DNA of 64,000 nucleotides from Candidatus Hydrogenedentota bacterium (GCA_045863295.1 BTWA01000008.1:32001-96000); one strand, 5' to 3'. Positions 28,860-47,000 are shown, counted from the stretch's first letter. Made by a program: numbers and translations. The notes: generated by a model from the letters alone, not told the origin.

Positions 28860-31800
28860 ATGAACACAACCGACTCTATTCTGCTCCAACGCTGGGCGGC
28901 AAACCACGATGCCGAAGCCCTGCATGAAATCGTCTCCCGGCATTCACGCATGGTGTACAACACCTGTCTGCGCGTGCTGGGCAACGCGTCGGACGCCGAG
29001 GACGTCGCGCAGGAATGTTTTGTCAAGTTGGCCCGGGGCGTGAAGCCGCGCGGCGATTCGCTGGCGGGGCTGCTGCACACCATGGCCACGAACATGGCCC
29101 TCAACCGCATCAAGATGGAATCGCGCCGCCGCGCCCGCGAAAAGCGGTATACCGATCAGTTGGATCAAACAGTCGAGATCACCTGGGAAGACGTGCAACT
29201 GCATGTTGACGAAGCACTGGCGGAATTGCCGGACGACGTGCAGGCGGTTCTGGTTGCTCATTTCTTTGAAGGCCGGACACATGAATCCATCGCGATGGAT
29301 GAAGGGGTGACGCGATCGGCGATCACGCACCGAGTTGGCAAGGGCGTGGACCTGTTGCGGGCCAAGCTCGCCAGGCGCGGCGTGACCGTGGCGGGCGGCG
29401 CGCTTGCCGCGTTGTTGGAAGCCGCGCCGGCGGAAGCGGCTGCGCCCAGCCTCGCGATCGCCTTGGGCAAACTCGCGATGGCCGGCACGGCGGGAACCGC
29501 AGTGGCGACCGGTGTCGGCGGATTGTCCATAGCCGCAAAGGTGGCGATAGGAGTCGCCGTGATGGCGGTGAGCGCGACGCCGTTCTTCTGGCGATATGCC
29601 GGCCCGTCTGTTGGATCCGGACAATTGGACGTTGATGAAGTCGCGACCGCACAGGCACAGCCGGAACCCCCGGCGCCGCAATTAGCCGCGGCGGCGAAAC
29701 CCAACGATGAGCCGGGCAAAGCGCCGGATGGAATTGAGATCGAAACGGTTACCGTGAGCGACACGGGATTCGTTCGCGGCGGCGTGCATTGGACAAACGA
29801 TTGGCCATATGGAAAGTTCAGAGGCGAAACCACCGATCGTGACGGAAAGGCAACGTTGACGGTCCAGCCCGATGGGTCGGAGTCGTGGATGGCATTCAGC
29901 CAGAACACAACGAAGTGCGCGCTTGTGCGCTTTTCGCGGGCCGACGCCGAAAAGCCTCGGCAGATCGCTCTCACCCTTAACAGCGCGGCGCTATACGGCC
30001 GCATCGTCGGACCGGATGGATCCGGTGTGGGCAAAGCGCAGGTACAACTTCGATACACGGCGGAGGATGGCGAAGAATTTCTCAGCGCACCAATCACGGC
30101 CAACAAGTATGGCTACTACGGATCGGAATCACTGCCCACCGCGGATCATTGGTCACTCAGTGTCCGGGTCGTGCCGCCTGGAGATGAACCGGCGGGGCCG
30201 TGGAGCGAACCGATGCCGCTGATGAGCAAGTGTACTGCGATTACATTTCCTGACGTGGCGGTCTCGGCCGAAACGGCCGCCAACATCGAAGCCAACCAGG
30301 TTTTGGAAGGCTTCCGTGAGCGCATATACGAAACCGGCCCTGTTGTTGCCTATGGCGGATTCGTCCGCGACGAGGCCGGTGCTCCCGTCACGTTTGCAAG
30401 CGTCGAATTGATGCACGATGTACCGTCAGGCATGGTCACCACTTCCCAGGCCATGACCGACGAGAAAGGCCACTGGACCCGCATGTTGCCGGAAAACGTG
30501 ACGGGCCTGCAGGTTCGTGTGCAGCATCCTCAATTCATACCCACCACCGTGGACGAGGAGTACAAAGATCCGCCGCTGGCGCGAATGAAGGACGGCACAA
30601 GTGAAATTCGATTGCGCCGCGGACGCACAGTGAAGGGCCTCGTACAGAACGAGAAAGGCGAACCGATTCCCGATGCCTTGGTGCTCTGCGGCCGCTTCTA
30701 CAGCTATACGCCCGGCGGATATGAACCCAATGCCTCAACGCCTATTGAGGACATGACCACGACGCGAACCAACGCCAACGGTGAATTCGAATTGGCCTGT
30801 CTCGCTCCGGGCGAGGTAACGATGCCTGTCTCGGCAAAAGGATATGCACCCGCGATCGCAAAGCTTTCCGTCGGCGAAACCGCAAATGAGATTCAAGTCA
30901 CCTTGCCAAAAGGCGGAACGGTCAAAGGCCGAATCGTCGACACGCAAGGGAACCCATTGTCCGGCGGATATGCCTATGGGAATCAGTGGGTGATGGATCA
31001 ACAGTACCAAATCAGCATGTCGGCATTGGCGGACGAGAACGGCCAGTTTGTGCTAGACAATGTCCCCATGGAAGGAACAGTCTCGCTCAGCTTCGGCGTG
31101 CGGGGTATCGATGGCCGCCGCGATCGCCGGTTTCTTTCGATGACTAGCAACGAGATGACGCCGCGGGAGGAACCGTATGTCATCACGATGTACATGCCGC
31201 CGGTGTTCAAGGGCAAGGTTGTGGATGACGAAACCGGCCAACCGGTCACCGACTTCTGGGTGAAGAACGGTTGGATCTTTTCCAATAGCGAGTCGGTGGA
31301 TTGGATTCAAATGTCGAGCCCATCCCACTTCGAAAACGCGGCGGACGGATCGTTTGAAAAGAAAGTGGACGGCGTTCACCTCAGCTATCCCATCAACGTG
31401 ACGTTCGTCGTCGGTGTGTTTGCCGACGGATACTATGAATCCGTCTCGCCGGCGATGCAGCCGGGCGAGGAACTCGCGCCATTTGAAATCCGCCTCAAAA
31501 AAGGCGCACCCGTGACCGGCCGCGTGGCCGATGCGCAAGGCAATCCCGTGGCCAAGGCGAATGTCGTGTGGGTCGGTTCGAACACAAAGGCCTTTGTTGA
31601 GAATGCCATCGTGGCGCCGCGTTACGGTGGACAACCGGAGTTCACTGTAGAGACCGGTGACGACGGCTTGTTCTCCCTGCAACGCAATGCGGAGTCTGGC
31701 ATTGTTCTCGTGCTGCACGAATCCGGCTATGCCCATATCAACGCCACGGAGCACGCCCCCGGAGGCGACGTGCTGCTCACGCCTTGGGCGCGCGTTGAGG

Positions 31801-32843
31801 GCATGGTACATCTCGCGGCGGATGCGGAGAAGAATGCGATGATGCAATTGAAGCCGCTGTCGCAAGAGGACTACGCGGAATCGGGAAGGGTCTACTGGAT
31901 GTTCAGTCAGACCGCGCACGTGGACGGAAGGTTCGAGTTCGATCGCGTGCCGTCTATTCCGCTGGAAGTGGGCCGGATGGTGATTGCCGCGCAACGCGCG
32001 GAATTGTCGCACACCACGACGCTCACGCCCGCGCCCGGCGAAACGAGCATCGTGCACATCGGCGGCGATGGCGCGGTCGTGGAAGGGTCCATCGATCTCG
32101 CCGCCTTGAGCGAAACCGGTAGGAAGGCCTTTGATCCAAAGCACATTCGCGCGGCGGCGGTGCTTGTAAACGGAACTGGCAACGCACCCGCTTCGCGATA
32201 CGTGCCGCAATTCAAAGAAGACGGATCGTTTCGAATCGACGGAATGCCGCGGGGCGATTATGAAATGGAATTCTTCTTCCACGCCCCTCCCTCCCGCTAT
32301 GTGTGCGGGTCCGGCATACTGCTCGCCACCGCTACGGCATCCTTTTCGGTGGCGAAAGGCATCAGGGGTGAGACCGTGGTCATCCCGGCGATTCCAATGG
32401 AAGAGCCCAACACCCCGCAAACAGGCGGAACCGCGCCTGCGCTGCTCGCCTTTACTTTGGACGGCCGGGAGTTCTCCCTGGAATCGCTGCGCGGAAAGAC
32501 CGTGCTCCTCGATTTCTGGGCGACGTGGTGCCCTCCCTGCCGTGACATGACGCCAAAGCTGAAGGCGCTATACGATGCCATCGGCGCAGCCGAATCGCTT
32601 GCGTTTGTGGGGCTATGCTTTGACGAACGCAAAGAGGCGGCACAGAAATACGCAAGCGAATCGGGAATGACTTGGCCGCAATTGATGACGGACAAATGGA
32701 CTCCGGAAAACGTTACCTTGCGTGAATTCGGCGTTACCAGCATTCCATCCCTGTGGGTCCTCGGCCCCGATGGCACCGTGCTTGGACGTGACTTGACCCT
32801 GGAGGAAGCCGAAGTGCTCCTGCGCGAAGCATCCAACCCGTGA
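28860..32843 (+). CDS. ECF sigma factor fused to TM helix, carboxypeptidase-regulatory-like repeats and C-terminal TlpA-like redoxin
   Basis: DAEDVAQECF (region 2), region 4 HTH, repeated G.V.D..G.P...A.V units, LLDFWATWCPPC. Confidence 0.85.
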   Translation: MNTTDSILLQRWAANHDAEALHEIVSRHSRMVYNTCLRVLGNASDAEDVAQECFVKLARGVKPRGDSLAGLLHTMATNMALNRIKMESRRRAREKRYTDQLDQTVEITWEDVQLHVDEALAELPDDVQAVLVAHFFEGRTHESIAMDEGVTRSAITHRVGKGVDLLRAKLARRGVTVAGGALAALLEAAPAEAAAPSLAIALGKLAMAGTAGTAVATGVGGLSIAAKVAIGVAVMAVSATPFFWRYAGPSVGSGQLDVDEVATAQAQPEPPAPQLAAAAKPNDEPGKAPDGIEIETVTVSDTGFVRGGVHWTNDWPYGKFRGETTDRDGKATLTVQPDGSESWMAFSQNTTKCALVRFSRADAEKPRQIALTLNSAALYGRIVGPDGSGVGKAQVQLRYTAEDGEEFLSAPITANKYGYYGSESLPTADHWSLSVRVVPPGDEPAGPWSEPMPLMSKCTAITFPDVAVSAETAANIEANQVLEGFRERIYETGPVVAYGGFVRDEAGAPVTFASVELMHDVPSGMVTTSQAMTDEKGHWTRMLPENVTGLQVRVQHPQFIPTTVDEEYKDPPLARMKDGTSEIRLRRGRTVKGLVQNEKGEPIPDALVLCGRFYSYTPGGYEPNASTPIEDMTTTRTNANGEFELACLAPGEVTMPVSAKGYAPAIAKLSVGETANEIQVTLPKGGTVKGRIVDTQGNPLSGGYAYGNQWVMDQQYQISMSALADENGQFVLDNVPMEGTVSLSFGVRGIDGRRDRRFLSMTSNEMTPREEPYVITMYMPPVFKGKVVDDETGQPVTDFWVKNGWIFSNSESVDWIQMSSPSHFENAADGSFEKKVDGVHLSYPINVTFVVGVFADGYYESVSPAMQPGEELAPFEIRLKKGAPVTGRVADAQGNPVAKANVVWVGSNTKAFVENAIVAPRYGGQPEFTVETGDDGLFSLQRNAESGIVLVLHESGYAHINATEHAPGGDVLLTPWARVEGMVHLAADAEKNAMMQLKPLSQEDYAESGRVYWMFSQTAHVDGRFEFDRVPSIPLEVGRMVIAAQRAELSHTTTLTPAPGETSIVHIGGDGAVVEGSIDLAALSETGRKAFDPKHIRAAAVLVNGTGNAPASRYVPQFKEDGSFRIDGMPRGDYEMEFFFHAPPSRYVCGSGILLATATASFSVAKGIRGETVVIPAIPMEEPNTPQTGGTAPALLAFTLDGREFSLESLRGKTVLLDFWATWCPPCRDMTPKLKALYDAIGAAESLAFVGLCFDERKEAAQKYASESGMTWPQLMTDKWTPENVTLREFGVTSIPSLWVLGPDGTVLGRDLTLEEAEVLLREASNP

Positions 32844-33406: not shown

Positions 33407-33483
33407 GGGCGGTTAGCTCAGTTGGTTAGAGCATCTGCCTTACACGCAGAGGGCCAAAGGTTCGAGTCCTTTACCGCCCACCA
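33407..33483 (+). tRNA. tRNA-Val(TAC), also the left att junction of element 1
   Basis: Acceptor GGGCGGT/ACCGCCC-ACCA; anticodon arm TCTGC-CTTACAC-GCAGA; T arm AAAGG-TTCGAGT-CCTTT. Confidence 0.97.
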
Positions 33484-35115
33484 TTTTTCTACCCCGTTTT
33501 TTTCTTGGGTTTTCTCAAAACCCCTGTCTTTATTGGCCGATCCGCGTGTCGTGTCCGATGCACTAGGTAATGTCTTATTTGTTGCAATATGTGACTCAGA
33601 TTGACTCGAAATGTCACCGTTTGGGGAAGAATTGGGGAAGGAATGGGGGAAGGAATTCGCGGGGGCATCTGCCGATCCGTGTGCCGCTTGGGCAACGTCT
33701 TGCCCTTGGGCTTCGCCGCCGATCCATGGCAAGGATTCCACCGCGCCGCGCATATCGAGGGCTTGCGGGTCCGTGTAGGTTTGCATCGTTAGGCGAATGT
33801 CCGAATGCCGCGCCAATGCCTGGGCCGTCCGTGGGGCCACGCCCGCCGCGTTCATCCACGAGATGCACGTCATGCGAAGGCTATGCACGTCCACCGTGCG
33901 CCCGCGCTGGTCTCGCTTGGCAATGCCCGCCGCCTTCAAGTCGAGGTTGAAGGGCTTGATCATCTTCAAGGGCAAGTCATCGAACAATCGGGATTGCGGG
34001 TCCAATGCCATCGGGAAGGGCCGCCGGGCCGCTTGTGCGCCTTCCTGGGCCGTTTTCAGCCGTAGGGCAAGATATTCGCGCAAGGCTTCGCAGACTTCGC
34101 CACGCAGGGGCACCGTGGCCGCTTGCCGGTTCTTTGCGTTTGCCGCCGCAAGGTGCAATCGCTTGCCGGGCAAGTCGAGGTCACACACGCGAAGCGAATG
34201 AAGTTCGCCCATGCGCAAGCCGCTATAGATCGCCGTTGTGTAGAAGGCCGCGTTCCGTTCGCCATGCAATCGCGCCGCTGCCAAGACGTGGGGCCGTGGA
34301 TTCGCCTTGTGGGGTTTCCGTTCCTTGGGGGCCGCGCCCTTGGGCTTGCGTCCGCCGTGGTTATAAAGCACTTCGTATGTGGGCCGTTGCCGGGCCGCTT
34401 GAATGAGCCGGGCCGCTTCATCCGGGGTCAAGGCCCGCCGTTGCCGCCGTTGATCCACCGCTTCGCTTGCGCGATCCATCCGGGCGAAAGGGTTCGCCGT
34501 ATGCCGCCCCGTTTCGAGTAGCCAATTCCCGAAGGCCGTCAAGGCGATTACGTGGGCATTGTGCAGACGCGCACCCATGGGGTTGCCAGACTGCCGCCGT
34601 TGTTCGTGAAGCCATCGCATCGCGCCTTGTCTGTCGAGGTCGGCAATGCGCCGGAAGCCGCAACCGTTGATCACGCGGTTCAAGTATCGCGCCACACTGG
34701 CAACATGCTTCGAGGTTGCGCCGCGCAATTCGAGGGCTTGCCGGTAGGCTTCAACGTGGGCCGTCAAGGGCACCGCCGCATGCTGGGCCGCCTTCGCTTC
34801 CGAGGGCGATACAAGGCCCGCCCGGATTCGTTCCGCTTCGCCTTCCCATTTGGAAAGCACCGCCGCCGCCGCGCTCTTGTCTTTACAGCCCGTGGATCGT
34901 TCGATCACCGTGTCATCGCCGCCGCGATACTTCGCCACCCATGCCGGGCTTGTGCGTTGAATCCGCAAGGCATCGCCTTTGCCGCTCACAACCGGGGCCG
35001 TCTGTGTCTTGCCCTGGGCATCGATCCACCGCGCAAACCGCTTGCCCTTCGAGGTGAACAATTCCGCGCCGTCTGGCATCGGGGCCGTGTATTTCTTGCG
35101 AATCAGGCTTGCCAT
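33418..35115 (-). CDS. Tyrosine integrase (integrated form; C-terminus read antisense through the tRNA)
   Basis: YSGLRMGEL, AKN, DVHSLR, ARHSDIRLTMQTY catalytic motifs. Confidence 0.93.
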   Translation of the reverse strand: MASLIRKKYTAPMPDGAELFTSKGKRFARWIDAQGKTQTAPVVSGKGDALRIQRTSPAWVAKYRGGDDTVIERSTGCKDKSAAAAVLSKWEGEAERIRAGLVSPSEAKAAQHAAVPLTAHVEAYRQALELRGATSKHVASVARYLNRVINGCGFRRIADLDRQGAMRWLHEQRRQSGNPMGARLHNAHVIALTAFGNWLLETGRHTANPFARMDRASEAVDQRRQRRALTPDEAARLIQAARQRPTYEVLYNHGGRKPKGAAPKERKPHKANPRPHVLAAARLHGERNAAFYTTAIYSGLRMGELHSLRVCDLDLPGKRLHLAAANAKNRQAATVPLRGEVCEALREYLALRLKTAQEGAQAARRPFPMALDPQSRLFDDLPLKMIKPFNLDLKAAGIAKRDQRGRTVDVHSLRMTCISWMNAAGVAPRTAQALARHSDIRLTMQTYTDPQALDMRGAVESLPWIGGEAQGQDVAQAAHGSADAPANSFPHSFPNSSPNGDISSQSESHIATNKTLPSASDTTRGSANKDRGFEKTQEKNGVEKWWAVKDSNLWPSACKADALTN

Positions 35116-35185
35116 GATCGTGTGATTCCTTTCCGGTTGCCGGGCCGAATCCTAACGCGACAAACGCAAGGCTGCAAGTTCGTGG

Positions 35186-35416
35186 TCATCGCCGGGGCCG
35201 TGTTGTGCGAACGTCCGGGCATCCATCCGCAATCCATTGTTCGATTTCCGCAATGCGCCACCGCACCGCGCCGCCAATGCGAATAGGCCGGGGCATCGCG
35301 CCCTTGTCGCGCATGCGAAACACTTGCCGCGTGGAAATGCTGCATGCTTGCGCCACGTCTTTGGCCGTCCAGAGTAGGCCGGTTTGCCGTACATCGTTTT
35401 CATGGGGTCCGTGCAT
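35186..35416 (-). CDS. AlpA-family excisionase/regulator
   Basis: KDVAQACSIS..VFRM...MPRPIRIGGAVRWRIAEIEQWI. Confidence 0.85.
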   Translation of the reverse strand: MHGPHENDVRQTGLLWTAKDVAQACSISTRQVFRMRDKGAMPRPIRIGGAVRWRIAEIEQWIADGCPDVRTTRPRR

Positions 35417-35735
35417 ACTGTTTTTGATTCCTTGATTTAACGTGCGAACGGGGTCACTGGCGGTACACTGTGAGCGATCACGATCTTTTACCCCCCATTG
35501 GGGGCCGGGGCTTGTCCGCGCATTGCACCGTGGGTTTGCCGCGCAACGGAATGCCGGGGCCGATCAATGCCCGCGCCTTGCGTTCCGCATCGCTTGGATC
35601 GCTTGCCCAAACCCGCGCCACCGGGCCGCGCTTGAATGTGACAATGTATCGAGTCATCCGCCATTCTCCGGTTGTGTGTGTAACCGATACGCTACGTCCA
35701 ATTTCGCGGGTTCACGCATGCGACGTTCTCCGCGC

Positions 35736-36620
35736 TCAATCGCCGCTGGGGTCTGAGTTTTCGATACCCCTTGCCCGGCATGATCCGTGTGTAAGTTGAA
35801 CCCACGCTGACAGGTGTTTTAGGAATGGATTCGAGTCGTTCGCGCATTTGAGCGACATTCGCACCCCGTCCGCCGCTTGACTTGGATCAATGTGCATCAG
35901 AATTCGCGCCGCTTCAGTTCGATCCCGGCCAACTATGCCAAAGCCATCCAAAATCGCATCCAATGCGCCCGGGGTACAGCAATCATCGGCATTCGCAGAC
36001 TTAGGCTGGATGGTACTTATACTGATCGGCGCACTTCGTGCGGGAGAGAATCCCGAATCTGGATCATGTATCGGCGCATTCTGTGCGGGAGGTTGTTTCT
36101 CACACCCGGAGGTATCGGCGCATTTCGTGCGGGACATATCGGCGCACTTGGTATGTGAGCATTTTTTCACCCTGTAGTCTGTACGTCTAATCCGTTTTCC
36201 GTTTGCTCTTGCTTTTCGGCTTGTGATTTGAACCTGAATTTTCGGGTTAATAGTGGCGTCCTTCCACCGAATCGATGCTTCGTACCGCCGTGGTGCGCCT
36301 GCACGCGATTCTTGAATGTCCGCTGGGGCATCGAAGAAGCCCGCTATACAGATTTCCTTCACCGCTCTATGAAAGGCCCGCTCGCTGAAAGGCAATTCGC
36401 CTGTATAGGCGAAGATGAACACGGCATTACACGTGTCCCACTTGCTTGCGCGATAGTAGGCGAGAGCCATGTAGGGGAACACAGCCTTAGCCATTAATGA
36501 GAGTTGAAAATACGCAGGACAGTCGAGTAGGTCACATCTAAGAGGGACAGACTTTCCACTTCCAAGAAACCCGCGAATATTCGAGTTGCTTTTCCCGGTC
36601 TTTTGATTCTTCCTTGCCAT
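35736..36620 (-). CDS. Putative replication initiator of element 1
   Basis: wHTH-like N-terminus; internal 21-bp repeats; similar to 40902-41756. Confidence 0.55.
   Translation of the reverse strand: MARKNQKTGKSNSNIRGFLGSGKSVPLRCDLLDCPAYFQLSLMAKAVFPYMALAYYRASKWDTCNAVFIFAYTGELPFSERAFHRAVKEICIAGFFDAPADIQESRAGAPRRYEASIRWKDATINPKIQVQITSRKARANGKRIRRTDYRVKKCSHTKCADMSRTKCADTSGCEKQPPAQNAPIHDPDSGFSPARSAPISISTIQPKSANADDCCTPGALDAILDGFGIVGRDRTEAARILMHIDPSQAADGVRMSLKCANDSNPFLKHLSAWVQLTHGSCRARGIENSDPSGD
36025..36158. repeat. Four 21-bp iteron-like direct repeats
   Basis: ATCGGCGCA(C/T)T(T/C)..(G)TGCGGGA at 36025, 36070 and 36114; degenerate copy at 36138. Confidence 0.75.
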
Positions 36621-36738
36621 CGCTCATGCTTTCAGCCTTGCACGAACGGCGCATATCATGGCAGAATTCCAATACAAGAAATCGCCTAGTATATGGCCGC
36701 GATACCCTGCAAGTGCTACCCGCTTGCGGGGTTTCGTG

Positions 36739-36936
36739 TTATTGGCCGCTGATTTCGTGCAGGAAAGATTCGAGGTCGTGGGATGCAACGAAAAGCCGCC
36801 CACCCACGCGGTTAACTGCAAGCCGCCTGCCACCTACCCCTTGCTTTGCCCAACGCCACAACGTTGCGCGGTGGATCCGTGTGCCCATGGTTTGGTGAAT
36901 GTAGTGGGCCGCTTCGCTCAGTGTGAAGTTTTTCAT
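36739..36936 (-). CDS. DUF1580-like HTH DNA-binding protein
   Basis: TLSEAA..IHRATLWRW..G...RL...RVGGRLF. Confidence 0.75.
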   Translation of the reverse strand: MKNFTLSEAAHYIHQTMGTRIHRATLWRWAKQGVGGRRLAVNRVGGRLFVASHDLESFLHEISGQ

Positions 36937-37027
36937 GACTCATGCTCCAAGGTTTACGGTTGCGTCAAACACAACTGAAGTTAACCATGAAACAGAAGAG
37001 TTGGAAAGAGCTTGGAGAGGCAATATA

Positions 37028-37081
37028 GGACAAATACTAGCAGTGTCCCATGAAAATGGGACAAATACTAGCAGTGTCCCA
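37028..37081. repeat. Perfect 23-bp direct repeat with palindromic ends
   Basis: GGACAAATACTAGCAGTGTCCCA at 37028-37050 and 37059-37081. Confidence 0.85.
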
Positions 37082-37712
37082 AGTCCTTAGATTCCAGTCT
37101 GGCAATATTGCGTCCCAAGGTCTTCAAAGACACACGCGGTTTCTCTAACATTGCAATCACTTCCGGCATTGCCCTGAACCGATCAAACTTCGCCGCACGT
37201 TCATATAGAAAAGAATGGGCATACTTTAGCGCCAGATTCCGAGAGGCCGTAGGATTCCGTTGCCGGTATTCTTGATAGACATTGAACACTTCGGAAAGGA
37301 TTTCTTCTGGTACTACTGTACCCTTCAATTGGGGACCGCGCTTCGTATCATTTAGATTCTTTTCGCCGCGCACTTGCAAGGCTTCGAGACGAATTGCCCT
37401 GTCTGCTCCGGGGATTAATTTATCGAAGTCACTAACTGACATCATGAAATGTGGCAACACCATTTCAGTTAGTTCTTTCAAGAGACTGTCAACTTCCCAT
37501 CTTCGGTCTGCATTCTCTGGACTGCCGGGGTTTTCCCAGATCACTTCAAGAATTGAACGCAATTCCTGTAATCGGTGGTCGACTGTTTTTGCAAAATTAA
37601 TGTGTTCGACAATCCACTTCATTGCTCCATTTGCGTTCAGTTCCATACCCGCGTTTTTGTATAAAGAATCGTCATCGTCGGGAAAAATTGCATTGTAATC
37701 ATCGCGTTCCAT
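37068..37712 (-). CDS. Hypothetical protein of element 1 (lower GC)
   Basis: Long ORF; helical; no recognised family. Confidence 0.6.
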   Translation of the reverse strand: MERDDYNAIFPDDDDSLYKNAGMELNANGAMKWIVEHINFAKTVDHRLQELRSILEVIWENPGSPENADRRWEVDSLLKELTEMVLPHFMMSVSDFDKLIPGADRAIRLEALQVRGEKNLNDTKRGPQLKGTVVPEEILSEVFNVYQEYRQRNPTASRNLALKYAHSFLYERAAKFDRFRAMPEVIAMLEKPRVSLKTLGRNIARLESKDLGHC

Positions 37713-38014
37713 GTGCTCACATCCTTTGTCACTTGCAATGCACGCAACATTATAGACGCTTTGGGTCCTTCCTTCATGCCTTGGCACCGTGCGCCCCTGG
37801 AATCGCCAAACTTTTGTGCAGCCGAAGATCATTTTTGCGGGTTCCGGTTTCGAGTTGGGGCTAATTGACTAGCATGCGAATCGGTACGCGGGGTATCTAA
37901 GTCGTTTAGATTTGAAACCCAAATAGGCAAAAATCGCCCCGCGAACACACAACACTAAACGGGCGGTACGCGGGCAAGACGGTTCAACCGGCAACCCCCT
38001 ACCCCCTGGGGCCG

Positions 38015-38227
38015 TCAATGCAATTGCAAGGCTTTGCCGCACCGTCCGCAATAGTTTGCATGTGGCGGGGCAATCGTGGGCTTCCCGCACGCGGGGCAAG
38101 GGGCCATGTTTTGAACCGGCACGGGTTCAAGGGTAGGGCAATACACGAGGTCATGGTGTGCGCTCATACCGAAAGGCCCGGCAACCGGGGTCACACCATC
38201 GGGGGCATGTGAACGTTTCGAGGGCAT
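38015..38227 (-). CDS. Small double zinc-ribbon-like protein
   Basis: CPACG and CGRCG motifs; AAGGA RBS; begins right after the 38234 stop. Confidence 0.55.
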   Translation of the reverse strand: MPSKRSHAPDGVTPVAGPFGMSAHHDLVYCPTLEPVPVQNMAPCPACGKPTIAPPHANYCGRCGKALQLH

Positions 38228-38233
38228 GGTCCT

Positions 38234-38497
38234 TTATCCCTTTCCGTTGCCTTCGAGTAGGGCCGCAATGAGCCGTGCCCGGTCCATTGCGTTCAATGCC
38301 CGGAAGGCATCCGCCAAGGCCGCTACGGGGTCCGCCGCCACGCCCTGGGCCGTTGACTCCGTGGGCCGTTCCTGGGGGCTTGCCGGGGCCGGTTCACCCG
38401 CGCCAATTTCGGATTTTGGGGAAGCCACAGGGGAAGGAAAATCCGGGGCACTCGCAAGTGTAGTGCTTTCAATTCCTTCCGAGGTGAGGCCGTCTGA
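38234..38497 (-). other. Detached 3' end of the integrase gene (87 codons, in frame with the att core)
   Basis: Stop-free from the att core to TAA at 38234-38236, in the frame that continues the integrase across a reconstituted attP. Confidence 0.75.
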
Positions 38498-38542
38498 CTT
38501 ACACGCAGAGGGTCGTAGGTTCGAGTCCTACACCGCCCACCA
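38498..38542 (+). repeat. Right att junction: duplicate 3' half of tRNA-Val
   Basis: CTTACACGCAGAGGGTCGTAGGTTCGAGTCCTACACCGCCCACCA; 40/45 identical to 33439-33483. Confidence 0.92.
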
Positions 38543-38669
38543 GTTTGGTATAATGTAACCCGCGCTGAAATCACCGTTTGCGTGATTACCCGCCAAAACG
38601 CGGCGCAGCCCAATAGGTCCGGGTTTCGTGGTCAATGACCACAAAACCCCTACTGAGAGGTTTGTGCCC

Positions 38670-39863
38670 ATGGGTAGACCACGTAACAGAATTCCTTCCC
38701 TTCTTCGCCGATTATCCCCCCTTGAACGCGCTTCCGGCGCACCGGGCCGGGCGTTCACCCGGGTCAACGGCCAAGACCACTATTTCGGTCCATGGGGTAC
38801 CGACGAAGCACACAGGGCATACCATGCCTTCGTGGCGCAATATGTGGCCGCCGGGTACCGCGTGCCCGTGCCCGCCGACGAAATCACCATCACGGAACTG
38901 TGTGCCGCCTACTGGACATTTGCCAAGGGGTATTACCACTCCGAGGGCGAGCGGTTTATGATTCACCGGGTGTGCGAGGCGCTCAAGAATCATTACGGCG
39001 GGGAACCAGCGGCGGACTTCGGGCCGCTCAAGTGCGAGGCGTTGCTTCACTGGTTTGTGTCCCAAGACCTGAGCCGCACCGGCGTCAATCACTGCCTGGG
39101 CCGCATCAAGCGGCTTCTCCGCTGGGGCGTGACCAAGGAACTGGTGCAACCCGACACCTATGCCAAGGTTGCGGCGCTGCCGGGCCTCCGGAAAGGCCGA
39201 AGCGCGGCGCGTGAGGGGCGCACGGTACTTCCCCCGCCCGTTGCCGACGTGGACGCCCTCTTGGCGGACGAGGGCACGACGCGGGTTCTTCGCGCACTGG
39301 TCACGGTACAACGGCATTCGGGGGCCCGGGCCGGGGAACTCATGAACTTGACGCCGGGCCATATTGACACCGCAGGGCCGGTGTGGGAAGCCCGGTTGAC
39401 CGAACACAAGACGGCATACAGGGGCCGTGAGCGGATCTTGTTCTTCGGGCCGGAATGTCAGGCGGTCTTGAAGCCGTTGATGCTTCGGAAGGCGGACGCT
39501 CCGCTGTTCTCCCCCGCCGAAAGCGAAGCGGAACGCCGTGCGTTGATTCACTCCAAACGCAAGACGCCGTTATCGTGTGGCAACCGGCCCGGGACGAATC
39601 GGGTTGCCAACCCGGAAACCGCTCCGGCGGATCGCTACACCGTGGATTCTTACCGGCGGGCATTGTCCCATGCGTGCCGTCGGGCCAAGGTGAAGGCATT
39701 CAGTCCGCATCAACTCCGGCATCTGGCCGCGACTGAGATTCGCGCTAAGTACGGTCTTGAAGCCGCCCAAGTCATGCTGGGCCACGCGGGCATGGCCATT
39801 ACGCAATTGTATGCGGAACAAGACTTCAATCTTGCCCGCCGCGTGGCTCAGGCCATGGGATGA
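38670..39863 (+). CDS. Tyrosine integrase of element 2
   Basis: SGARAGEL, EHKT, PHQLRH, LGH, TQLYAE; N-terminal NGQDHYFG. Confidence 0.93.
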   Translation: MGRPRNRIPSLLRRLSPLERASGAPGRAFTRVNGQDHYFGPWGTDEAHRAYHAFVAQYVAAGYRVPVPADEITITELCAAYWTFAKGYYHSEGERFMIHRVCEALKNHYGGEPAADFGPLKCEALLHWFVSQDLSRTGVNHCLGRIKRLLRWGVTKELVQPDTYAKVAALPGLRKGRSAAREGRTVLPPPVADVDALLADEGTTRVLRALVTVQRHSGARAGELMNLTPGHIDTAGPVWEARLTEHKTAYRGRERILFFGPECQAVLKPLMLRKADAPLFSPAESEAERRALIHSKRKTPLSCGNRPGTNRVANPETAPADRYTVDSYRRALSHACRRAKVKAFSPHQLRHLAATEIRAKYGLEAAQVMLGHAGMAITQLYAEQDFNLARRVAQAMG

Positions 39864-40376
39864 ACACCCATGCAAAAAAACAAGCTCACGGACGTTGCGT
39901 TGAACTTACTGGTCGCGGATGTGGCCGGACTCCGGGATGAACTCCGGGGCTTTGCCGCTAACCTGCAATCCCTGTTCGATGGACTCGGGGGCACCGCGAG
40001 GGCAACTAGGAAGACTTGAGGCGCTATGCGGTCCGCAAGGTGGCGTGCATCTCGCGCATGGGCGTGCCGTATCTCCCGAGGAAATGGCGCGCGTCATGGC
40101 GGCCGGCGACGCGATTGAACGATTCGGAATGGCCCTCAAGGGCGCGGTCAATGCGGCGCCCGTGGCACTTGCACGCTGGCTTGCGAATGTGGCGAACTCC
40201 GGTACCGGCACGGTGACGGAGAGTGAAGACAGTCCGACAGCAGGAGATGTATCAACCGCAAGTAGAGACTGTGGGGACCGGAAGTGGGAATCACACTATT
40301 GTTGCCCGACCCAAGAATGCTGGAGACGTCATGGAGGCTCTGCAAGGTTGGGCCACCATCCTAACGCAGAAACGTT

Positions 40377-40829
40377 TCACTTTACGTTTGGAGTTCCCCG
40401 AGACTCTTCATGACCCGCGTTCGCCAGGTCTTCTTCGGACATCCCCATCCGTATGATTCCCGAACCGACTGCATCCAGCTTCTGCTTGTAGCTTTCCCGG
40501 TACATGGAAGGCTTACGGGCCTTCAACAGAAAGATCAGCAGGGAATCCGAATACTTCGTGTAATAATCCACAATCTTCTTGCCCCTCCATATCGGCTTCT
40601 TGACACCGTGCACTGCACGCCTATATGCCTCAGCCTCCATAGCCTCCGTGCCTACTTCGTACGCTTCATCCCAGTCCTGCGAGAATCGCTCACACTTGCG
40701 CTTCAAATCATATGCCGCTTGCCGCGATATGCCGACCGCCTTTGCGGCCATTTCAATCGTTGCACCACTCTGAATATGAACCAGAAATACCTCGCGCTTT
40801 GACAATGTGAAGGTAATCCGCCTGGGCAT
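40377..40829 (-). CDS. Phage terminase small subunit-like HTH protein
   Basis: AAKAVGISR..AY...F...WDEA, EAYRRAVHG, YSDSLLIFLLKA.KP..YRE. Confidence 0.7.
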   Translation of the reverse strand: MPRRITFTLSKREVFLVHIQSGATIEMAAKAVGISRQAAYDLKRKCERFSQDWDEAYEVGTEAMEAEAYRRAVHGVKKPIWRGKKIVDYYTKYSDSLLIFLLKARKPSMYRESYKQKLDAVGSGIIRMGMSEEDLANAGHEESRGTPNVK

Positions 40830-40901
40830 ACGTTCTCACACCCCTACGTCGTGTAAAGCAATGTAAAGTTTCGCATGGAAGCGTATTCGCGTTCAGGTGT
40901 T

Positions 40902-41756
40902 CTAAACATGGTTCCTGCAAATCGACAGCAAGCGCTTCTCGAGTACCTGTCCCAGTGGCGACTTCAACTCACGTGACATGGAATCCGCCCAATTGAGTTC
41001 ACTCATAAATTGCTCTAGCGGCATTCCAGGGCCAATTCTGGCAGTCGTAGGTCCGATGTCGCCCATACTCAAGCCAAACTCGCTCAACGCGCTCATAAAC
41101 TCGCCGGGAAGCTTGTTGGGGTTGGGGAAAGCTAAGATTGACTTTCTTTCATCCAATTTGGATTCGGAATTCGGCACTCGGTCGGTATCTAAATCATTTT
41201 CTTTATTTTTTCTTAATCTTAAGATCGGCGCATTCTCTACATGGGTCACCTGTGCAAATTTTGCATGGGGGGGCATGCAAGGAATGCAGGACCCCGCAAG
41301 CAAATTCTGCATGGGTTCAGCCGCTTGTGCAGAATTTGCATGGGTTATTGACGTACTTTGAATTGGCAGGCGTGCCCGCTTGGCTTCATGGCTTTGTCTT
41401 CTGGCTTCTTGAGACAGTTTGGCTGCTTCGGTCGCGACATACCTTTTCCAGCGCGATGACGGCGAGTACTCTGTGGCAATTCCTGCAGACCCTTTTATGC
41501 GATTCACAAACCCAACTAACTCAAGCTGCCGCATTGCTAACCGGAAAGAACGTTCACATGCCACGGATCGTGGAGAATACGGAAACGGAATTGATGGGAG
41601 TTTGATTGTGCGGCATTTGGTGGCACGATGCCAAGCCAAATGGTACTCGATCAGCACATTGCGAGCTGTCGGGAAAAGTTCTCTGTATGCATCGCTTTGA
41701 AGCATTCTTTCGGGGACTTTTACCCAGAAGCCCTCGCGCTTTGTACTCGTTGTCAT
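40902..41756 (-). CDS. Putative replication initiator of element 2
   Basis: Similar to 35736-36620; internal 16-bp repeats; TAATG coupling to the upstream gene. Confidence 0.55.
   Translation of the reverse strand: MTTSTKREGFWVKVPERMLQSDAYRELFPTARNVLIEYHLAWHRATKCRTIKLPSIPFPYSPRSVACERSFRLAMRQLELVGFVNRIKGSAGIATEYSPSSRWKRYVATEAAKLSQEARRQSHEAKRARLPIQSTSITHANSAQAAEPMQNLLAGSCIPCMPPHAKFAQVTHVENAPILRLRKNKENDLDTDRVPNSESKLDERKSILAFPNPNKLPGEFMSALSEFGLSMGDIGPTTARIGPGMPLEQFMSELNWADSMSRELKSPLGQVLEKRLLSICRNHV
41230..41344. repeat. Iteron-like 16-bp repeats
   Basis: GCA.ATT.TGCATGGG-type copies at 41254, 41300 and 41329; degenerate copy at 41230. Confidence 0.7.
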
Positions 41757-42100
41757 TATTCGCACCTCCCAAGCTCTCGACGGGCTTGAGCGACTGCATG
41801 AGCGCGCTGTTTCTCCGTACGGCCGCGGCTGACATTCATTTTCGAATTTTCTTGATCGAGAAGTTTCTGCCGTTTCGAGTAGAATTCGACATCTGCCTCG
41901 GCAAGTACTCGAAAGAACTCATCTAAATCGGCTTGGGTTGTAAAAACACGCGATCCGATCCTGACATGCTTCAGCCGGATTCGCTCCCCGGTCCGGGCCT
42001 TCAGCCCAATTCGCATCCACCGCCAAACCACGGATGCGTGCACATGCTGCGGCGTTTGTTTAGCCGCCTCTGCTACAGTTAGAAAATCACCTCTCTCCAT
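41756..42100 (-). CDS. DUF1580-like HTH protein
   Basis: LTVAEAA..VHASVVWRW..G...RL...RIGSRVFTT...LDEFF; AAAGGAGG RBS. Confidence 0.8.
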   Translation of the reverse strand: MERGDFLTVAEAAKQTPQHVHASVVWRWMRIGLKARTGERIRLKHVRIGSRVFTTQADLDEFFRVLAEADVEFYSKRQKLLDQENSKMNVSRGRTEKQRAHAVAQARRELGRCE

Positions 42101-42618
42101 CGATTGCGCCTCCTTTCAGTGCGCTGGAGGCAATTTCGATCATTTTCTACTGGAGAATCTGCATGGTTGCTTTTGCCAAAAAGCGTACATATGTAAGTCT
42201 ATTTAATTCAGTTACTTACAGAAAACATATAGGTTTTTCCAAAAGCATGGTCGGCGTTTAGCTTATTTTTCCTTAAATCGCACCAATGTAGGCGAGACGC
42301 ATATGTTGCATTTCTATGGAACGTTCAGATGGGAAAGGTACTGAGGGAAGCAGATTGCTCGGATTGTGGAGGAAGTCGGATGACTCATCGGGTCAGAGTA
42401 CGGGTAACTTGACCTTCGCTCGCAGATTTGGAGCCTTTTATCGATGACACACGAGCTACAGTTGTATAGGCGTCATTGATTCAAGCAGCTTGAGGATGAG
42501 AATAGGCTCAAAAGCCTGGTAGTGGTACGGGCCTGAAGATTAAAGTGAGAAATGTCTAGCCACGCTGCCAAATCGACGGTTGTTTCGCTCTGTTGAGTTG
42601 AGTTGTCGTGTAGACAGG

Positions 42619-43872
42619 TCATTCTGCCTGGGCAAGGTAGCTCTTACCTTGCTCGGTGAGTGTTCGCTTCTGAGGGCCAGATATGAATCCCATATCGTGA
42701 AGCCGCTTAAGCTTGATTTGGACAGTTGTGAATTCTGGGTCCAGGTCCTCGTCAATTTCTGAAATGGCCTCGCATAGATTCGTTCTGACCTTTACCAAAT
42801 CTGAAGTCATTGATGGATTGTAGGTATCACTTCGCACCTCGCGTATTTCGTACGCTCTTGAGTTGCGAATCCCTGGATACTTTTTCACAGCTTTGAGAAT
42901 TGCGAGCTCCAGCCTGTTGATTTTGAAGTTAAGGTGGGAAGTAGACTGTCGAGGCCTCAAGAACTCATCCTCGTAAGCGGAATTCCAGCCATCCATTGCG
43001 CGCACCAGTTTCCTAAGGCCTAGCAGAGTACGCTCAGATACGTTTGGCAATGCATTGTTTCCTGCGCGCGCGAACACGCGCCACACATCGGTGGTTGAGA
43101 GTGCCAGGCCGGTACACCACTTTCCGTCTTCTCTTATTTGTATCTCCTTAAGCGTAACCGCACCGGACTGACCCATCTCTGCGGCCAAGTTGCACAAATT
43201 TTCAACGCGCTGAAGAACGCCCAAATTGCTAAACTGTCCAAGACTCATGCCATGCGTATGAAAGCGTAAGTACCAATGAAGGATGTGCCTGCGCAATGGA
43301 TCCGAGTCTTTGGATAGCTGACGCACTTCCGGGGCATCAAACACCTGTTGCGATTCGTCAATTGGGCGCACCACGATTTCTTCGGCGTCCGCCAGCGGTA
43401 GGACCGTCTCGGCACCATTCAGTATCCTGTAAAGTGTCGGCTCCGGAGCCTGGGGCGGCAATTGGAGAACATAGGAATTGTTGAAACGGTCCAGCCTAGA
43501 TACCGCCCTGGGACTCAAATAGGCGCATTTATTGAGGTCGTCTTTTGGCAGCTTGCAGAGGGTGTCGCTTATCTCTTCCAACGAAAGCAGCGAGTTTCTC
43601 GATTCGACTTCCTTTAACAAGTCTTTGTGGCTAACCAAAAGGGATCGAGTCGAGAGACAATGTGTTGCCTCTCGCAGGCGATTCAGGTGCTCAGTGTCCA
43701 ACTGAATGTCAACGCATCGGCCTTCCTTGACCCGCCCTTCGCCATTCCAGATGAAAGTAACGAACCATGCCAAAAAGTCGTCCTTTGTTGGCAGTTCGGG
43801 GTAGGTTGGATAGGTATCATCGAAATGCCAAGTTCCAATGACAATTGGCTGATCATGGGCTAAACCTGACAT
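42619..43872 (-). CDS. Hypothetical protein with C-terminal winged-helix-like end
   Basis: 417-aa ORF ending LKRLHDMGFI...LTEQGKSYL. Confidence 0.6.
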   Translation of the reverse strand: MSGLAHDQPIVIGTWHFDDTYPTYPELPTKDDFLAWFVTFIWNGEGRVKEGRCVDIQLDTEHLNRLREATHCLSTRSLLVSHKDLLKEVESRNSLLSLEEISDTLCKLPKDDLNKCAYLSPRAVSRLDRFNNSYVLQLPPQAPEPTLYRILNGAETVLPLADAEEIVVRPIDESQQVFDAPEVRQLSKDSDPLRRHILHWYLRFHTHGMSLGQFSNLGVLQRVENLCNLAAEMGQSGAVTLKEIQIREDGKWCTGLALSTTDVWRVFARAGNNALPNVSERTLLGLRKLVRAMDGWNSAYEDEFLRPRQSTSHLNFKINRLELAILKAVKKYPGIRNSRAYEIREVRSDTYNPSMTSDLVKVRTNLCEAISEIDEDLDPEFTTVQIKLKRLHDMGFISGPQKRTLTEQGKSYLAQAE

Positions 43873-44035
43873 TTGAGTTCACTCCACACTCGTCAATTCG
43901 CCAGCATGAATGCGCTCGTCCTTCCGACTAGCCATTGGCTCGAATCGGATGGTGGAGCCTCCTTGTGTGCTCCGACGTGCTCAAAACTCCATCTCTCATT
44001 TTCAGAGACGGCCTCCATTCTATCGTATTGCATTT

Positions 44036-47000
44036 CTACTCTCTTTCGAATCCTTGGCTGGTGAACTTCAACGTCCGCCCGTTCTCTGTCACCGTTCTAA
44101 CTACGTTCTCAGGTGCGCCGGATTGAAATTGTGCTTCTATTTCAAGTGTCACGGTGACATCTGCGCCCACCAGGCCTGCCAAATGCGCGATCACCTCGTC
44201 TGCAACCCGGCTTGCGTCGCGCCCAACACGGGCGGGATCCAGCACCACGGTGCCGTGATATCGCTTTGGCCTGACTTGAATGGGGGCAGGGGACGCACCC
44301 GCGTTTCCAGAATCGCCGCCTGTAGACGGGACTTGAGCATCTCCCGCAACCACTCCCGATTCGCCAGTTGCCGGGTCCGCTTGGGCTTTGCTGGTCTCCG
44401 CCTCCAACTGCTTGCGCGCGACATCCGGCTTGACCAACAGTCCCGGTGCATCCGCGCCAGCCGTGAAAATGGATTGTCCCCCGCGCAGACCTCGATAGCG
44501 ATGCAATTCCTCATCATAAGTGTCCGCAAAGGCGAACGCGTCGTGCTCCCACGTGAGCAACGAGACACCTTCGTTGACCGCGCCCAAAAGGACGTTCGTA
44601 TCCCGCAACCGCGGCAGGTAGATGTACCGTGCAAAATCTTCCGCCAACTGCTGCACCGAAACGTGTTCGCCCCGCCACAACGGTATCTTGTCCAAATCCA
44701 TCCGTAGCCGCGTCGCCGCCAGTTTGGTCACCAACAGTTCCTCGTGCTTGAGCTTCTTGCTCGCGCGGATAGCCAGCGGATCCTGCCCGGTCACACGAAT
44801 GGCATTCCAATGCACCGGGTCCTGGGGCTTGGGTTGCTCAGGAACCAAAAGCCACTGATAGGTTTCCGGAAGCCTCGCCGTTACCGCGCCATCAGCAGCC
44901 GATCTCTGCGTCTCCGCCTGCTTCACCTGGAAGGGCGTCAAACCAAGTTCGGTACGTTCAGTAAGAATGGAATCCCAGGCCAGGTACCGTCTGACCGCTT
45001 CGTCCAAATCCTGCAGGCGCGTCTTGTCAGCCGCCAGGAACACCAGCGCATTGCGATAAAGGCGTGGGCTGTTGCCACGCGCCTCCAGCATGGACTTGGC
45101 GGCCGCGTCGGCGGAGTTCCCCGCATCCTTGGTGTACGGGTGATCCGGACCTAACACGACCAACCGCGCATCCACGTCGTCCGGCACTTCCTGACCAGTC
45201 GCAGGCATGGCGTGCACACGGTTAAAGTCGCCCCGTTGTTCGAGGTCCCTCCTGAGCCGCTTCTCCATTTCCTGCACAACCTTGTCCGATTCGCGCTTCA
45301 ATTGTTCTGCTCGATCCTCCGCCAACTTCGTGACCGTGGGCTGCGTGGAATACCAATACCTCGGCCCATCCTGATACAGATACGTCGCAGCACCGGCCAG
45401 CCTGCGCAATGCATCTCCGAACACCGCAGGCGATTCGCCCGGCATCACGCACCCCAATTTCACCCGGCGATCTTCGATCCCCAAATGCGCAGCGCCGGCC
45501 ATCGGTGCCGACCCCAGGTAGATCGTCCGTGCCACGCGACGGCATGCGGCAAACTTGCCCAGGTTCGCGATCTCACCGTCCAGTCGCAGCGGCAACGAAT
45601 TGGGGCCATCCACATCCTTGGCCAGCACAGGCACCCAGTTATCGGATAAATATCGAGTCAACTCGAATTGCACGCGCGAGTCGTCGATGGCAATGTTGGC
45701 AGGCAGTATCAAGGGATTCCGGTCGCCCTTCTCCCACAAGCTATGGATCACCGCTGCCATGAGCCGCAGCACGCCGCGCGTACGTTGAAACTTTATCAAC
45801 GTCGACCAATCCGTATACAGACGGTCGAATATCTCTGGATGGATCGGATAGGCCGCTTTGATCCGCTTCTCATAGTCCGCATCGCGGCATTCGGGAGGAA
45901 ATTCGGCCTGCTGTGTCCGATACAAGTCGGCAAATTCCCGCGCCACCACGTCCCTGTCCTTGAACTGCTGCGGATCGGACATCGGCTCGAACAGGCGCCG
46001 CCGCACAATCTCAAAGCCTTCTTCCGCGCTGGCCGGCCGCCATGAAGACTCCACTCGACCGATAACATTCCGCAACCGGTCCAACGCTTCGCGCCCCCGC
46101 TGGCCGCCCACTTCCACGTCGTTGGCCTGCGTATGCGGCGAACCCGTCGTGTCCGATGCGGGCAGGCTGATTACCAAGAGACAGTTCTTCGCCAACTTGG
46201 CCGATTCCGTCAACACCTGCGCAAACGTGAATTGCGTTTCAAAACTGCCCGCGGGGAGGTCGCTCTGATCGTGCAACTGCCGCGCATAGGCCACCCACTC
46301 ATCAATGAGGATCAGGCACGGTCCGTATTCATTGAACATCTCTCGCAGTACATCGCCCGGACTTGTCGCCCTCTCGTCATCAGCCTTGATGCGCGCGAAG
46401 GCCTTCTTGCCCCCTAACTGCCAAGCCAATTCACCCCAGAGCGTGTGCACCACAGTCCCGTCCGCCTTGGTGGAGGGATTACCCGGCGAGATCTTATTGC
46501 CCACCAGCACGGCCCGGCGCACGGACGGCAGCGTATCCGCCGCCGCGCCTTTCATTACGGTGTCGACGCCGGACAGTTCGGCGGGACTAATGCCGGAAAA
46601 TAGGTGATACAGCGCCAGCATGGAGTGCGTCTTGCCGCCGCCGAAGTTCGTCTGCAACTGCACCACCGGGTCGCCGCCCCCGGCAGTCAACCGTTGCACC
46701 GCACCCGTCAGCATGCTCTTTAGGCTCTCGGTCACAAAGGTCCGCCGGAAGAATTCCACCGGATCCTTGTATTCCGCCGTTCCTTCCCCAACGTGCACCT
46801 GCCACAAGTCTGCCGCGAACTCCGCTTGTTGATAGCGCCCGCTGGCCACATCCTTGTGTGGGGTCACCACCTCGCGCCAGGGTTTCAAATGGCCCGTGGC
46901 CGCGCTTTCGATGGCCGTGCCCGAACTCTTCCGCTTTTCGCTTCGTACTTGCTCGTCGAAGCGGAGCCGCAACAGCTCCATCTTCATTCGCTCAATATCT

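Follow-up and report, generated by a model that had tools for sequence, protein, structure and literature searches.

Can the attachment site of an integrative element lie inside the coding sequence of its own integrase, so that integration gives the enzyme a new C-terminus? This question is raised by a locus of Candidatus Hydrogenedentota bacterium (GCA_045863295.1, BTWA01000008.1:32001-96000), which was analyzed here as a window of 64,000 nucleotides (nt), all positions being counted from its first letter. In this window, a 5,059-bp integrative element is inserted in the anticodon-loop region of a tRNA-Val(UAC) gene. A preliminary description, made from the sequence alone, had claimed that the attachment site of this element lies within its integrase gene (int) and that integration exchanges an 87-residue tail of the integrase (Int) for six residues. 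In my view, the best overall explanation is an overlap of int with attP, the attachment site of the circular form, as in Myxococcus phage Mx8, with forms of Int that depend on the state of the element (probability, roughly 0.8). The architecture itself, with attP inside int and the tail exchanged on integration, is very probable on the evidence of the sequence. The idea that the tail acts as a switch of direction or stability would merit somewhat less than even odds.

The coordinates of all features are collected in Table 1. The tRNA-Val(tac) gene is the sole tRNA gene detected by ARAGORN in the window, and there is one Val(tac) gene among the 43 tRNAs detected genome-wide in the assembly, which is 96% complete. 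Thus, keeping this tRNA intact matters to the host. The ends of the element lie in a direct repeat (33424-33487 and 38483-38546) of 83% identity with a spacing of 5,059 nt. The 15-nt core of this repeat spans the anticodon loop, the 3′ strand of the anticodon stem, and two further nucleotides, and is likely to be the crossover region. The sequences on the right side of the core are not the same in the two copies: the intact tRNA has AAAGG/CCTTT in its T-stem and the fragment at 38513-38542 has GTAGG/CCTAC, the differences being compensatory. Thus, the functioning tRNA is chimeric, combining the host 5′ half with the 3′ half carried by the element, while the host's own 3′ half has been moved to the right end, attR. 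The target tRNA remains intact at the left end, attL. When the empty site (attB) was reconstructed, it folded into a normal tRNA-Val(tac) cloverleaf, and the reconstructed attP contained no tRNA.

What does the insertion do to the int gene? In the integrated state, the open reading frame (ORF) of int runs antisense through the tRNA-Val(tac) gene from the CCA end to the D-loop and ends as ...WWAVKDSNLWPSACKADALTN, giving a 565-aa protein as had been described. The last six codons and the stop codon come from the D-arm of the host tRNA, also in the antisense direction. The two ends were joined by script at the 15-nt core, and this gave an uninterrupted frame of 646 codons, consisting of 559 shared residues followed by the 87 residues of the tail. 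The attL copy of the core is located within the 565-aa ORF, seven codons before its stop codon, and in the joined frame it is located 87 codons before the stop codon. The PF00589 domain (residues 284-451) ends before the core, and the catalytic domain is untouched by the swap of 87 residues for six. An alignment of 120 sequences shows no variation at R293, K322, H404, R407, and Y440 and almost none at H430 (numbering of the long homologue P0050); these six correspond to the catalytic residues R, K, H-x-x-R, H/W, and Y of tyrosine integrases. The numbers given in the preliminary description (a 646-aa protein on a 5,059-bp circle, position 33439 equated with 38498, and the stop codon at 38234) are all correct. 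It had also stated that excision would place a zinc-ribbon ORF directly behind int, and the ATG of this ORF indeed lies 6 nt past the TAA of the joined frame, in the same frame. In all three relatives examined in this respect (L036, L037, and L038), the stop codon of the tail overlaps with the ATG of the next ORF (ATGA). Thus, given the overlap or the 6-nt gap, the downstream genes would be coupled to int only after excision.

Is the 87-codon tail a real coding sequence? Two other frames are also open across this G+C-rich stretch and, thus, the openness alone is weak evidence. Among the 120 homologues listed, seven have the tail motif; these proteins are 611-683 aa in length, run through the tRNA-like part, and share a terminal motif resembling that of the window. 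The conserved positions of the tail include D/E-R-x-x-L. A profile was made of the last 45 residues of these seven long homologues, the window being excluded, and searched against all six-frame segments of at least 25 aa in the whole 6.3-Mb genome. The tail was the single significant match (E = 2.4e-4), the next best match having an E value of 0.85. Among 147 further representatives, P0146, P0185, P0127, and P0128 score at E ≤ 2.5e-4 with the tail profile, and the motif was recognized by reading in P0129, P0180, P0182, and P0176. The tail and the integrase form one chain in at least 15 database proteins; besides the eight just named, these are P0050, P0067, P0072, P0097, P0101, P0103, and P0108. 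At the first, second, and third codon positions, 12 genomic tails have mean pairwise identities of 0.49, 0.56, and 0.36, respectively, over 41 columns. Third positions being the freest, this is what purifying selection leaves in a sequence that is translated. The G+C content at the three codon positions is 0.76, 0.53, and 0.71 in the last 34 codons of the window tail versus 0.66, 0.51, and 0.73 in the int body. Judging from these comparisons, the 87-codon tail is evidently not a chance open frame.

Is the arrangement kept in related elements? A search of 60 related genomes with the tail alignment gave 13 matches in nine genomes, and four of the 13 matches lie 5-7 kb from an int gene of the family on the same strand. 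In each of the 12 tail matches examined, the open frame of the tail extends upstream into a tRNA-antisense-like peptide or, in one of them, into a non-tRNA core. A match in G036:C316 (E = 0.005, 20 positions, in a 458-aa frame) has no integrase nearby and was discarded as a false positive and not counted. A scan of metagenomes with P0101 alone gave 79 loci, six of which have a tail 7-11 kb upstream of int; neither P0101's own contig nor a locus in the attP form was among these 79. Three further elements (L132, L134, and L137), which the profile had missed, were found through a direct search for att repeats. A scan of IMG/VR with the long-form alignment gave five loci; none of these carries a tail, and none has a tRNA where int ends.

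Both ends could be resolved in 13 relatives, and in every one of these, int continues in frame into a motif-bearing tail when the att repeats are joined. Thus, related elements do conserve an in-frame tail, the lack of which the preliminary description had named as a refutation. The 13 loci are L036, L037, L038, and L039; L085, L077, L090, and L055, which were resolved by script; L064 and L121, which were resolved by a shared peptide; and the three found through att repeats. Since there are close kin among them (L085 with L090, and L077 with L121), about nine are independent. Their targets are genes for tRNA-Pro, tRNA-Val (two), tRNA-Asp, tRNA-Ala (four), tRNA-Lys, tRNA-His, and tRNA-Met, one non-tRNA core of 20 nt, and the target of L121, which is tRNA-like and was not typed by ARAGORN. 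The elements are 5.6-11.2 kb in size and the joined tails have about 57-107 residues. The non-tRNA case is L039 (G052:C151), which is integrated at a 20-nt core unrecognized as a tRNA by ARAGORN and yet has a conserved in-frame tail. Thus, the int-attP overlap is independent of a tRNA target.

The integrase family as a whole is large and mostly planctomycete. There are 519 homologues at E ≤ 0.001 among 8,000 candidates scored, and the long-form profile finds 5,051 cluster representatives at E ≤ 1e-30; the source names of some homologues are Planctomycetaceae, Gemmataceae, and Phycisphaerae. These names, together with the DUF1580 protein encoded by the element (Table 1), suggest that the host, too, is a planctomycete. 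Most members are 545-600 aa in length and end in antisense peptides of a tRNA T-arm. Hexapeptides identical to the antisense translation of any of 114 tRNAs were looked for in the 233 family proteins of at least 480 aa. They occur after residue 440 in 183 of these proteins, at most 15 residues from the end in 129, and in the four-times-longer body in just 46. At the DNA level, an antisense tRNA is present at the 3′ end of int in 17 of 19 loci of relatives, and the int frame overlaps it by 50-78 nt in 15 of the 17. The element is thus one case of an Mx8-type int-attP overlap, a known arrangement for which the comparative evidence is here unusually strong, in this large and mostly planctomycete family. 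A search of the planctomycete literature on integrases, tRNAs, and attP found no paper describing such an overlap.

How far does attP extend into the coding sequence? Five of the six plus-strand copies of GGGGAAG in the 64-kb window fall in two arms, located about 170-215 nt from the core on the int side and 61-80 nt from it on the tail side. Three relatives have the same geometry with other words (GATTACAC, TCCTCCCC, and GTTGCAC). In all four elements analyzed, two or three copies at 12-nt spacing lie at about -226 to -190 and again at +54 to +95. These words of 7-8 nt differ between elements and match between the two arms of one element, which is typical of arm-type Int-binding sites, and they are proposed to be such sites. 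In the joined gene, the 3′ part contains arm repeats, followed by a copy of the 3′ half of the tRNA, then the 15-nt core, and then arm repeats again; the entire attP appears to lie within this 3′ part of the int coding sequence. The protein alignments of the family (A2 and A3) have two apparent motifs, xAPTxAPT on the N-terminal side of the tRNA part and CTxxCT on its C-terminal side, which coincide with the 12-nt-spaced arm repeats read in two frames. They appear to be DNA arm repeats rather than protein motifs, and such pseudo-motifs can mislead searches for protein motifs.

The long form P0050 was modeled with AlphaFold2 using the 120-sequence alignment (mean predicted local distance difference test score [pLDDT] of 83). 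The best match of the model in the PDB is full-length lambda Int (1z1b, E = 2.3e-10, 422 columns), and the integrase is a lambda-type tyrosine recombinase with N-terminal, core-binding, and catalytic domains. Residues 1-455 have a pLDDT over 90, including a confidently predicted, beta-rich N-terminal domain of 77 residues. Residues 468-582, the attP-encoded part, are predicted to be disordered (pLDDT below 50), and two helices follow at 582-592 and 596-605 (block means of 71-90). The model thus predicts that the tail consists of a disordered linker and then a conserved two-helix module of about 30 aa. A complex prediction of the P0050 Int body (1-460) with the tail (567-611) gave no verdict (score, 0.00).

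Which known systems resemble this one? The closest is Mx8, considered together with the Int of Mx9. According to a review (PMC6070905), attP is located within int, and integration makes a new 3′ end that modifies rather than inactivates Int, in agreement with the precedent cited in the preliminary description. As in the element, int contains attP within its coding sequence, integration takes place in a tRNA gene, and the catalytic domain is untouched. Mx8 has two forms of Int according to its state, IntP in the phage and IntX in the prophage, which may be likened to the 646-aa and 565-aa forms. The Mx8 record has a 533-aa Int with a tRNA-antisense peptide of the GLEP type about 115 residues before the end. 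The two integrases are similar in layout and size, with a long N-terminal part and 100-180 residues past the catalytic Tyr. On the other hand, the carriers found here are elements of 5-11 kb without recognizable phage structural genes, in an apparent planctomycete host, while Mx8 is a 49.5-kb phage. A tblastn search of 50,697 phage records gave no match at 1e-3, and pairwise BLASTP of the element Int with Mx8 Int gave an E value of 0.28. A comparison by hhalign, in which 321 columns were aligned and the core-binding region was covered, gave a probability of 91% (E = 1.1e-6), and the tail profile scored a nonsignificant 0.5 bits on the Mx8 Int tail. These comparisons suggest that the kinship with Mx8 Int is distant at best. 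Toward its end (int codons about 498-514), the Int tail of Mx8 (L130) contains LERLAAALHRTHAADDR, which is similar to the first part of the tail motif of the planctomycete family, at the same nonsignificant 0.5 bits.

Lambda Int (1z1b and 1z1g) is the best structural match of the element family. Other lambda-like traits are the putative arm-type repeats on both sides of a core with the inverted repeat of the anticodon stem, at lambda-like distances, and a small excisionase-like helix-turn-helix (HTH) gene adjoining int. The attP of lambda is located outside int. Here, in contrast, the whole attP is apparently coding, and the element Int is about 200-290 residues longer. The integrases of archaeal SSV1, pTN3, and pT26-2 also have their recombination site within the gene, in a compact int-att module, and a 2021 review of archaeal recombinases states that self-disrupting integrases are exclusive to archaea (PMC8371274). 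In the SSV type, integration splits and inactivates int, whereas here only the tail past the catalytic domain is exchanged; the archaeal type also belongs to PF16795 and the element Int to PF00589. A suicidal integrase of the SSV type was rejected, the integrated gene retaining the recombinase fold and 559 of the 646 residues. In mycobacteriophage BPs and its relatives, attP lies in the repressor gene, and the prophage protein is C-terminally shorter and loses an ssrA-like degradation tag (PMC4557955). The prophage and viral forms of the protein behave differently there, the gene being a repressor gene instead of int. BPs is the clearest precedent for a stability switch. A degron switch of the BPs type was rejected by inspection of the tails, which have no ssrA-like ending.

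How might the exchange be used by the element? On integration, crossover at the core rebuilds the tRNA from the host 5′ half and the element 3′ half, leaves a 565-aa Int with every catalytic residue, and strands the 87-codon tail at attR. Excision would restore the 646-aa gene and bring the downstream genes behind int. The long episomal Int would be the integration enzyme, while the short Int and an AlpA-like factor would perform excision, and the tail would be a built-in state sensor, biasing direction or changing either stability or the binding of partners. The direction choice of tyrosine integrases is usually ascribed to accessory proteins. It is conceivable, though doubtful in this complete form, that direction is here controlled in part by the recombination event that edits int: a tethered two-helix module, present only on the episomal enzyme, would act with or instead of a classical directionality factor, and the same event would connect the downstream operon to int or disconnect it from int.

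Could the selected trait instead be the coupling of expression into the downstream genes in the circle, the tail peptide being of little weight for Int? The six co-oriented genes would make the circle one continuous transcription unit, the ATGA overlaps in the three relatives and the 6-nt gap in the window fit such a coupling, and no sigma-70-like promoter was predicted between attR and the zinc-ribbon ORF in a scan that performed at chance (three found versus 3.2 expected). Circularization of Tn916 likewise lets transcripts cross the joint. However, coupling alone would not conserve an amphipathic 30-aa protein motif with the third positions freest, and this motif is kept across elements whose downstream ORFs are not detectably homologous. 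Coupling as the whole explanation is therefore unlikely, and as an addition it is compatible with a protein switch. A semi-suicidal integrase, in which only the 646-aa form is active and excision needs the long Int of a related incoming element, as proposed for archaeal integrases of the SSV type, would give the conserved tail a role in some Int activity, which it probably has. Orphan tails and a 3.1-kb unit lacking int (see below) would then be trapped elements, and several family members in one genome could help in trans (five at E ≤ 1e-20 in G052 and seven in G037). Against this, the full recombinase fold and the conserved segment after the catalytic Tyr precede the linker in P0050, all catalytic residues are kept in the short form, and integrated int genes have no internal stop codons in 46 of 46 matches, as if the short form were maintained. 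The Mx8 prophage form, too, remains active according to PMC6070905. I consider the semi-suicidal integrase quite unlikely.

It is highly improbable that the tail is a separate small gene, such as the 64-aa ORF starting from the GTG at 38428, or an untranslated chance frame whose fusion to int is incidental. In the window, L037, and L038, there are indeed ORFs of 49-64 aa that start from an in-frame GTG or ATG, and other frames are open in the same G+C-rich stretch. A language-model look-up of the P0050 tail also pointed to clusters of small planctomycete hypothetical proteins (53-74 aa), a lead only, the best scores of 0.77-0.79 being below the meaningful level. However, in 14 of 14 elements, the window included, int and the tail share one continuous frame, and upstream of every tail match examined, this frame stays open across the tRNA fragment. 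L036 lacks an in-frame start codon that would give at least 45 aa, and the natural proteins mentioned above carry body and tail in one chain.

Several observations weigh against a state-dependent Int encoded through an int-attP overlap. No attP junction was found in the contigs of four sequencing runs, which contain the integrated arrangement and unrelated tRNAs only; the search used assembled contigs at 13x depth with rare variants dropped and says nothing either way. One run contains 0.99 of the sequence words of the element and may be its source, and twelve others contain small shares; no RNA run was among those listed. Run X1 shows the integrated form, X2, X3, and X5 have small exact pieces, and no backward joint is present in any of the four. 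Joints of a "skip" type were rejected as evidence of excision, since they carry different anticodon arms and are the tRNAs of other organisms. In a search against longer proteins, the 87-aa tail alone matched none of 1,775 candidates at E ≤ 10, because the motif is too short to reach significance in a database of 5.8 billion sequences. That the long-form database proteins derive from circles is assumed; several of the contigs that encode them have a length of only 5-10 kb. By inspection, the tails end in varied sequences rich in G, K, and E, without a shared hydrophobic ending of the AA type as in ssrA; thus, a simple degron model is not favored. Seven of ten further relatives have no second att repeat within the 6-20 kb stretches available. 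Six of the 13 genome tail matches have no family integrase in the stretch covered, which is 7.7-10 kb on the element side in three, about 5.5 kb in one, and contigs of 1.6 and 2.8 kb in the others. In L043 (G011:C32, 10185-13398), a 3.1-kb unit lies between a tRNA-Met and an exact copy of 26 nt from the 3′ end of this tRNA. The unit has a family-type tail at the far end, and tblastn found no integrase of the family in it; probably, the element is either decayed or dependent. L043 and the tails lacking int indicate that a tail can persist as a remnant.

To my knowledge, the rewriting of the Mx8 enzyme has so far been an isolated curiosity. The present results make it the rule in a large bacterial family, with a conserved tail predicted to fold, an apparently all-coding attP, and varied tRNA targets, and the natural variants offer a comparative set for asking what the tail does. 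An Mx8 int-attP fragment is used as an integration tool in myxobacteria, and the int-attP modules of about 2 kb could become integration tools for planctomycetes. For annotation, the length of an integrase and the presence of small "hypothetical" ORFs near tRNA fragments depend on the integration state.

Table 1. Features of the integrative element and its attachment sites (positions in the 64,000-nt window)
Feature	Position	Strand	Remarks
Chimeric tRNA-Val(UAC) at attL	33407-33483	+	ARAGORN; host 5′ part up to the core and element-borne 3′ half (33454-33483)
int, integrated short form, 565 aa	33418-35115	-	PF00589 Phage_integrase at residues 284-451, E = 1.9e-18
attL copy of the core	33439-33453		15-nt exact run, identical to 38498-38512; longest within the direct repeat
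P-arm repeats, GGGGAAG x3 (plus strand: 33623, 33634, 33646)	33620-33664		Spacing of 11-12 nt; inside int
AlpA/excisionase-like HTH protein, 76 aa	35186-35416	-	PF05930, E = 1.4e-7; phrog_66; just upstream of int
294-aa ORF	35736-36620	-	No family match; holds three 23-nt repeats
65-aa HTH protein (DUF1580/HTH_17)	36739-36936	-	Pfam
254-aa ORF	37068-37832	-	No family match; low-G+C stretch
Zinc-ribbon ORF, 70 aa	38015-38227	-	Weak DZR match
Detached int tail, 87 codons and TAA stop (38234-38236)	38234-38497	-	Separated from the int body when integrated
Conserved C-terminal module, last 32 codons (DPVAALADAFRALNAMDRARLIAALLEGNGKG)	38237-38332	-	From alignments; counterpart in P0050 predicted as two short helices
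P′-arm repeats, GGGGAAG x2 (38418, 38430)	38416-38448		Inside the tail coding region
attR	38498-38542	+	Second core (38498-38512) and displaced original 3′ half of the host tRNA-Val (38513-38542)

All six genes between the two cores are co-oriented. An AlpA-like HTH gene is located beside int in all four elements compared by BLASTP with each other, and its product is a candidate recombination directionality factor, that is, an excision factor. No match to Pfam, PHROGs, or NCBIfam was found for the 87-aa tail, the 294-aa ORF, or the 254-aa ORF, and a homologue search with the 294-aa ORF returned just itself. DUF1580 is a family of Rhodopirellula. In a promoter and terminator scan of the element, the counts were at chance. 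Inside the 294-aa ORF, at 36023-36134, there are three iteron-like direct repeats of 23 nt with a spacing of 44-45 nt; these repeats and the ORF might be a replication origin and its initiator. The DUF1580/HTH gene is preceded, at 37022-37081, by two 29-nt repeats in tandem, both of which contain an inverted repeat. The pair overlaps with one of the three promoter-like sites and is a possible operator.

On its right side, the element is followed by a second tyrosine integrase gene (38628-39863, plus strand; 411 aa, PF00589), which starts 86 nt past the displaced tRNA half and is directed away from this half. Next come a low-G+C stretch at about 40200-44200 and a gene for a 1,117-aa protein with HEPN_Swt1 and DUF499 (44036-47389). 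The region from 38628 to about 47400 resembles an older island that used the same tRNA and is perhaps a defense island; a third tRNA repeat bounding it on the right was not found within the window. The left neighbor of the element (28860-32843, plus strand) encodes a 1,327-aa protein with an N-terminus of the extracytoplasmic function (ECF) sigma factor type (Sigma70_r2/r4), carboxypeptidase-regulatory-like repeats, and a C-terminal thioredoxin/AhpC domain.

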